Below are positions 2,570 through 8,558 of a stretch of 32,000 bases of DNA, piece after piece (position 1 is the stretch's first letter; each line of letters opens with the position of its first letter). The position numbers and the translations under genes are program-made. The DNA is from Candidatus Saccharimonadota bacterium (lineage in GTDB: Bacteria > Pseudomonadota > Alphaproteobacteria > CAJXXZ01 > 1604HC): positions 240,001 to 272,000 of the forward strand of contig NZ_CP043314.1 of assembly GCF_008189525.1 (NCBI RefSeq), given 5' to 3'. The notes below the pieces were generated by a model. The model was not told the DNA's origin, did no database searches, and worked only from the letters and a program-made list of their open reading frames with translations.

Positions 2570-4438
2570 ATGAAGTTGAAGTCAAGTTTGTTAATTTTAA
2601 GTTCTATTATTTGTTGTGATTTATCTTGTAGAAGTTTAGCTTTGGAAAAAGCAGCTGTAGATTTTCTCAGCAAAGGTGAAAAATATGATGGAGCAATTGG
2701 TTATTGTGAAAAAATAGATTCAGAGTATGTGTTGTGTTTAGAAACTGGTGAATCAGTATCTTCCAAAAATAAAAGCTTTGCAAAGTTGTTTAAAAACAAT
2801 CCTTTTGGTGGTAAGCATTTAGAGCTTTCTCCAATTTGGAGGAGCATAGTTTCAAAAGAAGCAGATCTAGAATTTGTGATTGATTCTGAAATAGGATATG
2901 CTGTTTCTCAGAAACTTGTAGGAAAGTCAGAAAAAGATGCTTCCATAGCTATGCTTGATAAAATGAAATTAATTAGCTCTGATTATTTTAAATCTGGTAT
3001 ATTGAAAGGTTTAGAGAAACATTCTGCAGAGTTATCTGTAGAAGACAAAGATAAATTCGCATCATATCGCACTGAAGTTGATCTGGATGCAAAAAAACTA
3101 CAAGAAGAATATGACTTAGCTGTTAAACTTAAATCTAAATTGGAAGGTGTAGATTCTTTTAGTGATCAGGATAGAGTTTTGTTAAATGAACTTAAAGTAG
3201 AATACGAAAAAGCTAGACAAGGTTATGAAGTTTCTGAAAATTTGGAAAAAATTAAAAAACATGCCACAGGACTATACGAAGGTAAAGTTAATGATTACAA
3301 AAAAGAAATATCTGATTTTAATGAAATTATTGAAAGTAGATTTCCTGATTCAGATTTGGATTTAAGTTTTTTGAAATCAGTTGCAAGTGCAGATTTTGAG
3401 AAGTTTGTAATTAGTAAGTACGCTCAGAATATAAAATCTTTATTAAATATTTTTATACAAAAACTAATTAAGATTCATGATATTAAAAAGGATTTTGAAA
3501 AATTGAGAGGAATTAAAAATTCAGAAACTTTAGAGAAAATCAGAAAAAGTTCAGATTTAGAAGATAACTCTTATATGAATACATTTTGGAATTTAACTAA
3601 TGTACAAAGTTTAACAAAAATATTAGAAAACACTTCATCACTTTCTATTGATTCTGCTTATGATTTGCTAGTAAAACATTCTCAAGTAGAAAATGCTACA
3701 TTGGCTGAGAAATACGCTAAAAAAGATCTATCAATGAATGAGGTTCTAAAAGAAACTAAAGAGCAAATTTTTGAAAGATTTAAAATTTATCTAAATACTA
3801 AATTAATAAGCAATTCTATTTCTAAAAATATTTTCGAGTATTCAGTAAATCAATATAAATCTCTTTTAGGAAAAATAAACAGTGCAATAGAAAAAAATAA
3901 AAAAGAAGCAAGGAAAGAGAAAATTACTGAAGCATTAAGCAATATACAGAAATACCTTGTTATGGAAAATGAAAATATAGTTAAATCAATTGAAAATTTA
4001 AGTGCAGCAGTAAACTCTGTTGATATTTCTCATAGATTAAATGACAGTGATCTAAAATCCATAGAAAACAAGTCTGCGTATGGCAAATTTGCGAATAGTA
4101 GTAGTTCTTTTGGATTCTCTGCAGATAATTTAGGTTTTAATATTTACTCTAAAGAAGGAAAAAAAGATTTAAATATAGACAAGTTTCTTGTTGAGCAGAG
4201 TGTATCTTATTTGCAAGCAAAAAATTCTACAGATTCTTTTGAAGAAGAAATGCATGAAATTTTCAGCAAAATGGAATCTCTTATAGGAAAAGAAAAAGGG
4301 AATGATTACCTAAAAGGGCAAAATAGCTCTTTGAATATGTTAAGCAAGTCACCAGAAGAGTTAGAACAAAACCTAAAAGATGGTATGAGTTCCATAAAAC
4401 AAAAACATATAGATGAAATAAGCAAGCTATCCAAGTAA
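2570..4438 (+). CDS. orphan secreted or surface protein, predicted helical/coiled-coil (622 aa)
   Basis: Long uninterrupted ORF in an AT-rich genome. Hydrophobic N-terminal signal-like segment (MKLKSSLLILSSIICC...), GGAGGA just upstream of the ATG, and a K/E/S/L-rich body with heptad-like stretches. I recognise no catalytic motif. Confidence 0.6.
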   Translation: MKLKSSLLILSSIICCDLSCRSLALEKAAVDFLSKGEKYDGAIGYCEKIDSEYVLCLETGESVSSKNKSFAKLFKNNPFGGKHLELSPIWRSIVSKEADLEFVIDSEIGYAVSQKLVGKSEKDASIAMLDKMKLISSDYFKSGILKGLEKHSAELSVEDKDKFASYRTEVDLDAKKLQEEYDLAVKLKSKLEGVDSFSDQDRVLLNELKVEYEKARQGYEVSENLEKIKKHATGLYEGKVNDYKKEISDFNEIIESRFPDSDLDLSFLKSVASADFEKFVISKYAQNIKSLLNIFIQKLIKIHDIKKDFEKLRGIKNSETLEKIRKSSDLEDNSYMNTFWNLTNVQSLTKILENTSSLSIDSAYDLLVKHSQVENATLAEKYAKKDLSMNEVLKETKEQIFERFKIYLNTKLISNSISKNIFEYSVNQYKSLLGKINSAIEKNKKEARKEKITEALSNIQKYLVMENENIVKSIENLSAAVNSVDISHRLNDSDLKSIENKSAYGKFANSSSSFGFSADNLGFNIYSKEGKKDLNIDKFLVEQSVSYLQAKNSTDSFEEEMHEIFSKMESLIGKEKGNDYLKGQNSSLNMLSKSPEELEQNLKDGMSSIKQKHIDEISKLSK

Positions 4439-4578: not shown

Positions 4579-5361
4579 TCAGTTAGGTAATTTTTTATTC
4601 TTACTGTTATCTTTTATAAGTAATGTAATCACATAAAGTATATATGCAGATCCTATAATAAGAGATGCTATCCATATATACGCGAACACAAGAGTGCTTA
4701 ATAAAGATAGTATTCCAAAGAATATATGATACTGAGATTTATTTAATTTAATTTTGTTTATGGCAATTGTTCTGATTTTACTTATTAATCCCATAGAAAT
4801 TAAAAGTGTGTTTATGCAAAACACCCAATGGTTTAATTTTATTTGTAGTACATTCTCTACTACAATTGGCATAAAAAGAAGTAATCCCCCAGCAGGAGCA
4901 GGTATTCCTTCAAAGGTTTCAGAATGTTTTTCTTTTGATGTGTTTGTGTCATATGGTTCACAGTTTGAAAATGATTTATCAGAAAATCTTGCCAATCTGA
5001 AAGCCATACATAGTGAGAAAAACACACCAATAGACCAGCCTAGATTTAGCCAGTTATGTGTTTTATAAAAGAATATTATTAATATCGGAGCTATTCCAAA
5101 GCTTAGGAAATCTGCTAAAGAATCCAAAGTCTTACCAAACTCTGAATCGGATTTCAAATATCTTGCTATCTTTCCATCAATCCCATCAATAAAAGCGCAT
5201 ATTATGATTAATATTACAGCTTCGTTTACTTTTCCATTATAAGAAAGTTTTATTGCTTTTAAGCTTAAACAAATTGAAAGAGAGGTTACTATATTAGCTA
5301 TATAATTAATCCCTTTGTTAATAAATAATTTTTTTCTGTATTTTTTGATTCTTTGGTTCAT
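4579..5361 (-). CDS. pssA: CDP-diacylglycerol--serine O-phosphatidyltransferase (CDP-alcohol phosphatidyltransferase family)
   Basis: DGIDGKIARYLKSDSEFGKTLDSLADFLSFG fits the D-G-x2-A-R-x8-G-x3-D-x3-D signature. The protein is polytopic and 260 aa, and psd lies nearby on the same strand. Confidence 0.9.
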   Translation of the reverse strand: MNQRIKKYRKKLFINKGINYIANIVTSLSICLSLKAIKLSYNGKVNEAVILIIICAFIDGIDGKIARYLKSDSEFGKTLDSLADFLSFGIAPILIIFFYKTHNWLNLGWSIGVFFSLCMAFRLARFSDKSFSNCEPYDTNTSKEKHSETFEGIPAPAGGLLLFMPIVVENVLQIKLNHWVFCINTLLISMGLISKIRTIAINKIKLNKSQYHIFFGILSLLSTLVFAYIWIASLIIGSAYILYVITLLIKDNSKNKKLPN

Positions 5362-5640: not shown

Positions 5641-6285
5641 TTACTGTTTTGCTATTATAGTTTCTCCGGCTACTAAAGTTTGTCCTTTTTTTATACAAAC
5701 TTTCATGCTCTTTGGTATGTATACTTCAGTTCTGCTGCCGAATTTTATCATTCCATAGGTTTGTCCTATTTTTAAGTTTTCCTTCTCATTTACATCACAT
5801 ATGATTCTTCTAGCTACAAAACCAGCTATTTGAGATACTACGCAATCTATAAAGCCATTTATCTTCATAGATAATCTTTCATTAGTCATAAATACTTCTT
5901 TTTTCCAAGCGAAATCGAAACTACCTTCTTTATAAACTATTTTTTCTATATTCCCAGAAATTGGTGCTCTGTTCACATGAACATCTGTAACTCTTAAAAA
6001 AATACCTATTCTTGTGAACTTGTCTTCTTCTAGATCAAAATCAGGGCATGGATGATTATCTATTGCCACCACTATTCCATCAGCAGGGCTTACCACTATT
6101 CCATCTAGTGATGGCACAACTCTATTAGGGTCCCTGAAAAACCATATAGAAAATATATTAAAAGATAAAGCTATGAATCCAGCTATGTAATGGAAATAAA
6201 ACAACCCAATTGATAGAAAAAACGAAACAATTATGATTGGATATCCTTCTGATCTTATTTTATTTAGTAAGTATTTATTTATCAT
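5641..6285 (-). CDS. psd: phosphatidylserine decarboxylase proenzyme, short type
   Basis: FFRDPNR, SPADGIVV, TDVHVNRAPISG and the self-cleavage motif KFGS-RTEV (Gly-Ser site) are present. There are N-terminal TM helices; 214 aa. Confidence 0.85.
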   Translation of the reverse strand: MINKYLLNKIRSEGYPIIIVSFFLSIGLFYFHYIAGFIALSFNIFSIWFFRDPNRVVPSLDGIVVSPADGIVVAIDNHPCPDFDLEEDKFTRIGIFLRVTDVHVNRAPISGNIEKIVYKEGSFDFAWKKEVFMTNERLSMKINGFIDCVVSQIAGFVARRIICDVNEKENLKIGQTYGMIKFGSRTEVYIPKSMKVCIKKGQTLVAGETIIAKQ

Positions 6286-6944
6286 TGAATTTCCTTCAAG
6301 AAGTCATTATGCAATTTTTCTAACTTTGAAACAACAGTTTCTGCAGAAATTAGTTTTTGTGATTCCAAGACATCTAGTTCATGTTCAACAGGTAAATACA
6401 TATTTACATACCCACCTAAGTTTTGATTTGCATATTTTTGTCCGATTTTTAATAAATCTCCAGTTTTTACATAACAGCTCACAGATTGCAAAGAGTTTTG
6501 TGAAACATGCTCTATTATAATCTCTGTCTTTCCAGAAATGACAATTATCAAGCTTTCTCTCTTTTTATAGAAAATGTTTTGCTCTCCGCTTAAGCCTGGA
6601 TTGTAATAAATGTGCTTTACAGTTCCTTCTATAGGGCTCCTGCATACATGAATATCTGTTATTCCATTTTTTATTTCTATTTTGTTCCATTTTTTATCTT
6701 TATATTCATTTTCTGTTACTGAATCTAGGGCTATATCTTTTTTTATGGATTCTACTATTCCATCGCAAGGTGGTAAGCAAGAATCTGGATCTGTAATTAC
6801 TCTCTTTTCATCTCTGAATAGTAGCAAGATAAGTGCTGTGCAGAGTATAGGAGTGAAATACCCAAGAACGAATACTGTGAATAGGAAAATAAAGCATACT
6901 TTTATGGCTTTAAAACCTTGTTTACTTAGTTTTAATCTCAACAC
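6282..6944 (-). CDS. Psd-family paralogue lacking the pyruvoyl-forming serine (GS -> GG)
   Basis: It aligns with the adjacent psd over its full length (LFRDEKRV, PPCDGIVE, TDIHVCRSPIEG, LKIGQKYA). At the cleavage site it reads NLGG-YVNMYLP where psd has KFGS-RTEVYIP. It has a GTG start, overlaps the xseB stop by 1 nt and overlaps the psd start by 4 nt. Confidence 0.7.
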   Translation of the reverse strand: MLRLKLSKQGFKAIKVCFIFLFTVFVLGYFTPILCTALILLLFRDEKRVITDPDSCLPPCDGIVESIKKDIALDSVTENEYKDKKWNKIEIKNGITDIHVCRSPIEGTVKHIYYNPGLSGEQNIFYKKRESLIIVISGKTEIIIEHVSQNSLQSVSCYVKTGDLLKIGQKYANQNLGGYVNMYLPVEHELDVLESQKLISAETVVSKLEKLHNDFLKEIQ

Positions 6945-7351
6945 TATTTTTCTTCCTTTACGTTAAAAAATTCTAATGAAATTTTTTTAATTTTATCTAA
7001 TGTTTTATCTAAAATTTCGTTAATTTTGTTTTTAGTATCATTTTCTTCACTTAGATTTAGATCTGTTAAGCTAGAATCTAATGATTCAAATATTTTTGAT
7101 TGTGCTTTTTTGAATTCACTTGATATTTGTTTTTTTATTTCAGAAAACTCAGATTCCTCTTCCTTTATTGAATCAACTTTTATTTCAGCATTTCTTAATT
7201 CATTTTCAGCTTCTTTTGCAAGATATATTCCTTTTTCATAAGTTGATACCGCTTTGTTTAAAGGTAAGTCCCCAGACTCTAGTTTATTCTTTATATTCTC
7301 TAGTTCTTTTATTTTGTCCTCAAAGCTAAGTTCTTTTTTATTCAAATTCAA
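6944..7351 (-). CDS. xseB: exodeoxyribonuclease VII small subunit with a roughly 55-aa acidic/coiled-coil C-terminal extension
   Basis: The N-terminal 70 aa (SFEDKIKELENIKNKLESGDLPLNKAVSTYEKGIYLAKEAENELRNAEIKV) match the XseB helical-hairpin pattern (L-E-x-G-x-L-x-L...Y-E-x-G). It has a TTG start overlapping the upstream stop (TTGA). It is 135 aa, whereas XseB is normally about 80 aa. Confidence 0.75.
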   Translation of the reverse strand: MNLNKKELSFEDKIKELENIKNKLESGDLPLNKAVSTYEKGIYLAKEAENELRNAEIKVDSIKEEESEFSEIKKQISSEFKKAQSKIFESLDSSLTDLNLSEENDTKNKINEILDKTLDKIKKISLEFFNVKEEK

Positions 7352-7923
7352 TCTATTTTACCTACTTCCCACTGTATTTCTTCGTTATTATATACTCTTG
7401 CTATGATAAAAAAGAAGTCAGAAATCCTGTTTAAATACTTTCCGATATTTACATCTCTATGTTCTTCTTCACACGCCCAGAAAGCTAATTCTGTCCTTCT
7501 TAATATTGTCCTACATATATGTAAGTGGCTGGAAAATAAAGATCCACCAGGTAAAACAAAATTATGAATTGGTTTAAGTTTTTTAAAGAAAAAATTTGCC
7601 TTATTCTCTATCCAAATATGGTATTCTTCTGTGATTTCTAAATTTGCCCCATTTATTTTTGCTCCTATATTGAATATTTGATTTTGTACCTTTAATAATA
7701 TCTCTAGTAAATCTTTATCTTTACAGTAATTTAAGCACAATCCTATGTAAGAGTTAGATTCATCCAAATTCCCAATGAAAGATATTAAATTAGAGTTTTT
7801 AGGAACTATACCACTTGATGTTGATGTTTTCCCTTTATCTCCATTTTTAGTTATATAAGAACAATTCACAGGGGTACTGTACCAAATAAATTGTACATTA
7901 TAAATATTAATTACTATTTTCAA
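7348..7923 (-). CDS. ATP:cob(I)alamin adenosyltransferase, PduO type
   Basis: ITKNGDKGKTS near the N-terminus (canonical T-[KR]-x-G-D-x-G-x-T), CRTILRRTE (the R-R-x-E motif), and a size of about 190 aa. Confidence 0.85.
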   Translation of the reverse strand: MKIVINIYNVQFIWYSTPVNCSYITKNGDKGKTSTSSGIVPKNSNLISFIGNLDESNSYIGLCLNYCKDKDLLEILLKVQNQIFNIGAKINGANLEITEEYHIWIENKANFFFKKLKPIHNFVLPGGSLFSSHLHICRTILRRTELAFWACEEEHRDVNIGKYLNRISDFFFIIARVYNNEEIQWEVGKID

Positions 7924-7990: not shown

Positions 7991-8473
7991 TTAAAGTAAA
8001 CGTACTATTAATGCACTTAATGATATAGCAGGGGCCATTGAAAAGCGCAGCTTTCTATGTTCGTATATATAGTTTTTGTAATTAGTGAATAAAATAAAAT
8101 TTCTGATATTTTTAGGTTTGTTTTTAGTAAACTTAATACCTAACAATATCAATGAGAACACAATTTGAAATAAACCAGAAAAAGTGTAGAAAGTTGTTAT
8201 GCTTTCATATGGAACTATTAAAGAGTAAGTGAAAAATAAAAAATAATCTCCTAATCCCATATAAGATTTTGTGATTTTTTGCGCTAAGAATGTTAAAAAT
8301 AAAAATGCAGCAGATTCAAGGCATGATTCATAAATATATCCATTCTTTTTTGAAAAAAATAATAACAATATTATGCCTTCCAGTGGGATTTTTTTGTAAA
8401 TTACATCGTATATTGATATGTATATCGCTGTAACAATAAATATAGTAGATTCTAGAAAATTAAACTCATACAT
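7991..8473 (-). CDS. polytopic membrane protein, probable A24-family (CpaA-like) prepilin peptidase
   Basis: Two candidate catalytic Asp motifs lie in TM context: ISIYDVIYKKIPLEG (D-x4-IP) and MGLGDYFLFF (G-x-G-D). Its size of about 160 aa matches CpaA-type peptidases. I start at the ATG at 8471-8473; the ORF track begins 3 codons earlier at a TTG. Confidence 0.5.
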   Translation of the reverse strand: MYEFNFLESTIFIVTAIYISIYDVIYKKIPLEGIILLLFFSKKNGYIYESCLESAAFLFLTFLAQKITKSYMGLGDYFLFFTYSLIVPYESITTFYTFSGLFQIVFSLILLGIKFTKNKPKNIRNFILFTNYKNYIYEHRKLRFSMAPAISLSALIVRLL

Positions 8474-8558
8474 AAACTTCAAAATATTCTAGCATGCTTT
8501 TTGTTGTTTTAAATAAAATAATTGAACATTAATTTAACATATTTAATATCTATTTCAG

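Follow-up and report, generated by a model that had tools for sequence, protein, structure and literature searches.

Members of the Cytomitobacter/Nesciobacter family carry, immediately before the gene for phosphatidylserine decarboxylase (Psd), a maintained paralogue of this enzyme that lacks the serine from which the pyruvoyl cofactor is made, and this paralogue is probably neither another enzyme nor a gene in decay but a partner protein without catalytic function. The stretch of DNA that we analysed (32,000 nucleotides; hereafter referred to as the window) spans bases 240001-272000 of one contig of 616,088 bp. The genome is consistent with that of Ca. Nesciobacter (Ignotibacter) abundans, a diplonemid endosymbiont; Ca. 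Ignotibacter (formerly Nesciobacter) abundans has been described as an endosymbiont of Diplonema with a genome of 616.1 kb (PMC11909080).

The genes concerned form a string on the minus strand of the window. Its first member encodes a PduO-type cob(I)alamin adenosyltransferase (ATR; 7348-7923) and is followed by xseB, encoding the exonuclease VII small subunit (6944-7351), by the gene for the serine-less paralogue (6282-6944; 220 amino acids, GTG start, PF02666), and by the gene for a short-type Psd (5641-6285; 214 amino acids). We refer to the last two as the upstream copy and the downstream copy, and to the conserved arrangement as the ATR-xseB-upstream-downstream string. A preliminary description of this DNA had reported two short-type Psd homologues lying head-to-tail with a 4-nt overlap, and the open reading frames were found exactly there, sharing an ATGA start/stop overlap (6282-6285, minus strand) that predicts translational coupling. 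The Shine-Dalgarno-like stretch GAAGGAAA precedes this overlap. At the other end of the upstream copy, the TAG stop codon of xseB and the GTG start codon have one base in common (TAGTG, window 6942-6946), behind an AAGGAAG stretch; the same junction is a gap of 30-360 nt in Cytomitobacter genomes, as opposed to the one-base sharing in the window. The pssA gene (4579-5361, minus strand), encoding the CDP-diacylglycerol-serine O-phosphatidyltransferase that makes the Psd substrate, lies 279 bp downstream of psd. A profile search of the window's own genome yielded two PF02666 genes only, namely the upstream and the downstream copies. Since the genome also carries plsC, cdsA, pssA and two further CDP-alcohol transferases, PE synthesis is predicted to be live. 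Elsewhere in the window, positions 7991-8482 contain a small A24-type prepilin peptidase-like gene, which scored 25 bits, just below the Pfam cut-off of 26.5, and positions 2570-4438 encode a 622-amino-acid protein with a signal-like N-terminus and without a Pfam match.

Both copies matched the PF02666 profile end to end, the upstream copy with 61.1 bits (profile positions 5-197 of 198) and the downstream copy with 137 bits, where the gathering cut-off is 22 bits. The downstream copy has the FGS-R site and all the family-conserved residues, and it passed the NCBIfam equivalog NF003685 (192 bits versus a cut-off of 183). The upstream copy fell below every NCBIfam equivalog cut-off, the best being that of NF003684 (90.4 bits versus 317). 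BLASTP aligned the two proteins with each other across 210 residues (27% identity, E 1e-23), reproducing the end-to-end alignment and the motif pairs quoted in the preliminary description.

At the aligned cleavage site, the downstream copy reads FGS, whereas the upstream copy reads LGG (G177-G178). Four alignments (BLASTP, MAFFT of 14 sequences, hmmalign and MAFFT of 131 sequences) agreed in placing Gly178 in the column of the cleavage serine, a column that is Ser in 116 of the 116 canonical Psd sequences in the 131-sequence alignment. The substitution described at the outset was thus borne out. Moreover, neither Ser, Thr nor Cys occurs inside the NQNLGGYVNMYLPVEH segment of the upstream copy, and no such residue is conserved at or near the cleavage site of the upstream copies, where the window has Gly-Gly and five orthologues have Gly-Ala (GA-T in the relatives). 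The upstream gene had been described as intact, coupled and devoid of the pyruvoyl-forming serine; this held, and the loss was found to reach further, to the QIAG..ARRI motif, G172 and R179. All six upstream copies have each of Q146, G149, A152, R153, R154, I155, G172 and R179 replaced, and likewise P46 and F92. These positions are conserved in about 83-100% of the 116 canonical Psd sequences (83-99% at the QIAG..ARRI positions, 100% at G172 and 91% at the Arg after Gly-Ser). The Asp and His of the processing triad (D61 and H99 of the upstream copy) are kept and are invariant across the six genomes; G62, R102, P104, G107, G117, E130, G168, G177 and P185 are kept as well.

The pyruvoyl prosthetic group of Psd derives from the serine of the Gly-Ser cleavage site (PMC7952604). 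As a conserved Ser, Thr or Cys is absent near the site, the upstream copy cannot form the cofactor by the known route and, without self-cleavage or a pyruvoyl group, it is not a decarboxylase. It belongs to the Psd fold family and nonetheless fails the defining features of the enzyme; lacking the serine, QIAG..ARRI, G172 and R179 and lying below the equivalog cut-offs, it cannot be filed as that enzyme. Public records label the Cytomitobacter orthologues of the upstream copy either "phosphatidylserine decarboxylase" or "hypothetical protein". The upstream copies are therefore misannotated where they are listed as active decarboxylases, an error that the present analysis corrects.

We modelled the upstream copy with AF2 as a single chain, using the 131-sequence alignment. 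The model (pLDDT 90.9, pTM 0.86) features predicted N-terminal hydrophobic helices (residues 8-24 and 30-42) and a beta core. Comparison with the beta chains of E. coli PSD (7cnz, 7cnx and 6l06) gave Z scores of 10.2-11.4 over 145-154 residues with an rmsd of 3.9-4.4, and the structural alignment ended with model residue 176 on chain residue 252, one before Gly253-Ser254. With Foldseek and VIA-align, the model also matched EIIA-Glc domains (Z 13-14) and the pyruvoyl decarboxylases PsiD and Ao-ADC1 (Z 9.6-10.2). When the sequences of the PDB were searched with the upstream copy, a chance match alone was obtained, to a quinone oxidoreductase (E 0.24). The upstream copy shares with the short-type Psd (PF02666; PRK05305 models; E. 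coli PSD 6L06 and 7CNW-7CNZ) the full-length match, the predicted fold, the N-terminal membrane helix pair, the triad Asp and His, and the psd/pssA neighbourhood, and differs from it in the residues of the cleavage site and substrate side listed above (the Gly-Ser serine, QIAG..ARRI, G172 and R179).

Relatives found via the protein were Ca. Cytomitobacter primus, Ca. C. indipagum and Rickettsiales/Alphaproteobacteria MAGs of 0.56-0.63 Mb. A search of related genomes for the same tandem pair had been proposed, and the adjacent pair was found in seven of the seven genomes of the Cytomitobacter/Nesciobacter family, where it follows ATR and xseB with its gene order unchanged. The two copies overlap by ATGA or TTGA in six of these genomes and by 8 nt in the seventh. 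The downstream copy reads GS in the six genomes whose upstream copy reads GG (the window) or GA (the other five). Elsewhere in the order, a single canonical psd is present in the two other families that have psd, and psd was not detected in four genomes. We also examined an even sample of 301 Alphaproteobacteria, including two unpublished genomes (G051 and G250, with one ordinary match each) that were used in the tally only. PF02666 matches occurred in 209 genomes; outside the family, more than one copy was found in nine genomes only, and adjacent extra copies in none. When we built a profile from the six upstream copies and ran it against 1.8 billion representatives, nothing closer than generic Psd was retrieved; its three hits below 1e-30 were two clusters of the family itself and the true Psd of the window. 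In word-indexed protein searches, the upstream copy, like the downstream copy of the relative G001 described below, returned self-matches only.

In the phylogenetic tree, the six upstream copies formed one starred clade (97/92) and the six downstream copies another (100/100). The stem of the former is long (1.4 changes per column), and because of this its point of attachment could not be placed. A single family-specific duplication of psd was not rejected (AU p 0.25); most simply, the upstream copy would be a psd duplicate that arose within the Cytomitobacter/Nesciobacter family. Horizontal transfer was considered as another origin and set aside on the grounds of this AU result and of the search of 1.8 billion representatives, which contained no relative nearer than generic Psd. 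The tree drew the upstream clade beside two sporadic serine-less sequences (P0026 and P0123), but this joins long branches and we did not trust the placement.

We then considered whether the upstream copy is maintained. Across the six genomes, 57 of its 220 positions are invariant. Pairwise comparison of its amino acid sequences gave 65-76% identity within the genus and 41-46% with the window; ATR and pssA reach the same level, and xseB a lower one. A dN/dS estimate for the serine-less copy had been suggested in the preliminary description; within the genus, the NG86 values were 0.12-0.25, as compared with 0.08-0.24 for the true psd, these values being rough because dS is saturated, exceeding 1 throughout. 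The reading frames are open in all seven genomes, free of the frameshifts and stops in orthologues that had been named beforehand as refuting the proposal. When the upstream frame was shuffled, about 17-19 stops were expected, and none of 20,000 shuffles was stop-free. Of all point changes, 5.8% create a stop, and a neutral frame would have a 5% chance of being open after about 0.08 substitutions per site. These results, taken together (invariant positions, dN/dS, neighbour-level identity and a stop-free frame), show that the upstream copy is maintained. The pattern is that of a gene kept under ordinary purifying selection and evolving about as slowly as its bona fide neighbours. The former active-site region of the upstream clade is remodelled yet conserved (H146, S156 and Y171-A172-N173; also E46 and T51); thus, the region is under a constraint of its own and not merely eroded.

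In one relative, both copies are dead. This genome (G001; GCA_913063285.1; 0.8 Mb in 20 contigs, 87% complete) carries the ATR-xseB-upstream-downstream string, with FTG at the cleavage site of the upstream copy and LGG at that of the downstream copy. The triad His is gone from both, and the downstream copy also lacks QIAG..ARRI. The two frames (L015:855-2097; also L067, L068 and L069) are open and overlap by 8 nt, and three independent assemblies agree on the sequence of the pair completely or almost completely. Positional orthology with the pair of the other genomes fits the indels shared in the MAFFT alignment of 14 sequences, and AU tests did not reject it (p 0.36 and 0.069). Both frames lie on branches of about 4 changes per column, on which, by the stop-shuffle and neutral-stop tests, open frames are not expected without selection.

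The surroundings of this pair differ as well. The pssA gene is absent after it, with no detectable remnant, and the genome (a MAG, 87% complete) gave no match to PF01066 (pgsA, pssA), PF01148 (cdsA) or PF01553 (plsC). The window genome and Cytomitobacter have the plsC, cdsA, pgsA and pssA families all present, at separate loci. Incompleteness of the G001 assembly might account for the absence of one gene, but scarcely for that of five genes from at least five loci, and its gene content suggests a wholesale loss of phospholipid synthesis. As a separate observation, the cdsA match in one Cytomitobacter genome (G004:C1:55213-55953) has two in-range TAA stops and may be broken or mis-bounded.

G001 thus keeps a coupled pair of which both members are dead, in a genome in which the phospholipid pathway was not found; this suggests that what is retained is more than an activator of PS decarboxylation. 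The prozyme-like activator put forward in the preliminary description would be one version only of the partner idea; the intact, coupled and serine-less nature of the gene was borne out. The case argues against activation of PS decarboxylation as the sole purpose, with which it is hard to square, and is easily accommodated by two mutually dependent proteins with another role. What is conserved is therefore probably the pair itself, and not only PE synthesis.

A second, independent set of serine-less Psd proteins was found outside the family. The sporadic serine-less hit P0068 represents about 100 sequence clusters (54-82% identity) from uncultured Alphaproteobacteria. The members of this clade have GGY (or GGF, GAY and similar) for GSR, a variable residue for the His, and QTA.FC.KRI for QIAG..ARRI, and the gene is located directly upstream of pssA with a spacing of 0-4 nt (e.g. 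L100:1456-3050, L102 and L099). The P0068 search of an even, class-wide sample of 401 genomes did not contain the clade, which we located by centring on the family f61. Among species genomes it corresponds to one genus of that family (g317; four genomes of lake alphaproteobacteria, 1.5 Mb, 99-100% complete). All four carry the GGY copy, which scored 97-103 bits. Each also encodes, elsewhere in the genome, a long-type Psd that scored about 209 bits and has DYHRVH as well as an intact MGST site (L105:560-1465 and L106:577-1476, minus strand); in the sister genera, a single short Psd of the canonical kind is present, with FGSR. As read from these sequences, g317 is a case of a dead short-type Psd retained once a live Psd was available, and its PE is presumably made by the acquired long-type Psd.

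The GGY clade is starred, nested among canonical alphaproteobacterial Psd and separate from the clade of the window, and the loss of the serine and the Gly-Gly-Tyr tripeptide therefore arose independently in the two. Kinship of the LGGY copy of the window with the GGY clade, which the tripeptide might suggest, is ruled out by the separate starred clades; the tripeptide is convergent. The g317 protein resembles the upstream copy in being a serine-less short type with Gly-Gly-Tyr that co-exists with an intact Psd, and differs from it in being the original operon copy beside pssA rather than a tandem duplicate, and in having mostly lost the His. The phenomenon is thus not confined to endosymbionts, the GGY clade constituting a second, free-living system. 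Since the dead copy does not adjoin the live long-type Psd, a dead Psd can persist without a neighbouring Psd partner.

Three further sporadic hits without the serine (P0026, P0067 and P0123) either came from short contigs or had no second psd visible. Among the best 150 profile hits, we also noted Gly-Cys at the cleavage site of P0015, P0044 and P0072 and Ser-Ser at that of P0038 and P0039, with Asp and His intact in all five; these homologues may be processing variants rather than dead copies. P0012, a protein of 1243 amino acids, gave 12 separate matches to the C-terminal part of the Psd profile (positions about 148-200); the region surrounding the cleavage site seems to be repeated in it as an array.

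As to what the protein does, we tentatively favour, short of regarding it as established on balance, a pseudoenzyme partner that forms a mixed dimer with Psd and has a regulatory, structural or lipid-binding role. The upstream copy, a predicted membrane-anchored protein of the Psd fold, would be made together with Psd from one message by virtue of the start/stop overlap, and would pair with the downstream Psd-fold protein. We infer the mixed dimer because the solved PSD is an (alpha-beta)2 dimer joined via its beta subunits (PMC7952604), because the coupling is conserved and because G001 keeps both dead copies. Within such a dimer, the upstream copy might tune the maturation or activity of Psd as a pseudoenzyme subunit; alternatively, it might lend the complex a membrane-located structural or lipid-binding role. 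Coupling by itself is no proof of a complex, as overlaps are common in compact genomes, and xseB and the adenosyltransferase gene also overlap their neighbours.

The closest known parallel is the AdoMetDC prozyme of trypanosomatids, a dead paralogue that heterodimerises with and activates S-adenosylmethionine decarboxylase, a pyruvoyl enzyme. The prozyme and the upstream copy are alike in being paralogues of pyruvoyl decarboxylases that lack the self-processing serine, are under selection and co-occur with the live enzyme. They differ in fold (the SpeD/AdoMetDC fold versus the duplicated-hybrid fold of Psd) and in that heterodimerisation and activation of the prozyme are experimental findings, whereas the heteromer of the upstream copy is deduced. 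Unlike the prozyme, the upstream copy is bacterial, tandem and translationally coupled, and one lineage has a pair in which both members are dead. By analogy, the prozyme would offer the best available model of how the upstream copy works, but this model must be incomplete if the same function underlies the G001 and GGY cases. Degenerate LytM factors (EnvC, NlpD and DipM), which are catalytically dead and activate other enzymes, provide another precedent for dead-enzyme regulators with a related beta-hybrid fold; LytM-type structures (4bh5, 7qrl and 8c0j) were matched by the model of the upstream copy in the structure search with Z scores of 8-9. They differ from the upstream copy in that the superfamily relation is distant and that their targets are unrelated amidases, not their own paralogue.

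The main rival to the mixed dimer, a reasonable possibility that we are nevertheless inclined to doubt, is that the upstream copy has been neofunctionalised and acts alone as a membrane- or lipid-binding protein, for instance as a binder of PS/PE head groups, a sensor or a partner of PssA, its adjacency to psd being a trace of the tandem duplication. The conserved residues of the remodelled pocket, together with the retained Asp61, His99 and R102-P104, would be in keeping with such a role, as would the coupling of the GGY clade's dead short Psd to pssA, far from the live long-type Psd, and the retention of the proteins by G001 without a detectable phospholipid pathway. On the other hand, G001 has also kept its former true Psd after this had died, which is easier to understand if the two proteins are mutually dependent, and the overlap between the copies is maintained in seven of the seven genomes. 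A PssA partner, moreover, could not be the general role, as G001 is without pssA.

A broader reading, which we consider somewhat unlikely, is that the short-type Psd has a second, catalysis-independent role, for example as a structural or lipid-organising membrane dimer. Such a role would explain all three settings, namely the tandem partner, the doubly dead pair of G001 and the pssA-coupled GGY copy.

It is improbable that the upstream copy is still an enzyme, a decarboxylase or hydrolase that would use the retained Asp and His with another nucleophile or cofactor. The invariance of Asp61 and His99 in the six genomes and the intact fold of the AF2 model would allow for this, but the site and its vicinity offer no conserved Ser, Thr or Cys, the substrate-side QIAG..ARRI motif is missing, and both G001 and most of the GGY clade have lost the His as well. 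Every characterised family member depends on the pyruvoyl group derived from Ser (PMC7952604). Least probable by far, and effectively refuted by the conservation data, is a functionless, decaying duplicate that has not yet acquired a stop codon: the upstream copy does evolve faster than the true psd (terminal branch 1.33 versus 0.41) and drift is strong in these genomes, but its frame is open in seven genomes despite saturated synonymous sites, against the shuffling result (0/20,000) and the roughly 0.08 neutral substitutions per site that suffice to bring openness down to 5%, its conservation equals that of ATR and pssA, and it has survived in genomes of about 0.6 Mb that are stripped of most metabolism.

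Neither a dead Psd paralogue nor a Psd prozyme was the subject of any paper retrieved by full-text searches of the literature, and the searchable genome papers on these symbionts mention neither psd nor phospholipids. The pair is a real, family-wide feature that is undescribed as far as we have searched. To our knowledge, Psd is the only route to PE in most bacteria and has been regarded as self-sufficient and encoded by one gene. A dead paralogue that is conserved and made together with Psd in such stripped genomes would represent either an overlooked component of PE synthesis, as a subunit or a regulator, or a use of the Psd fold that does not involve catalysis. The upstream copy would be the first protein known to be to Psd what the prozyme is to AdoMetDC.
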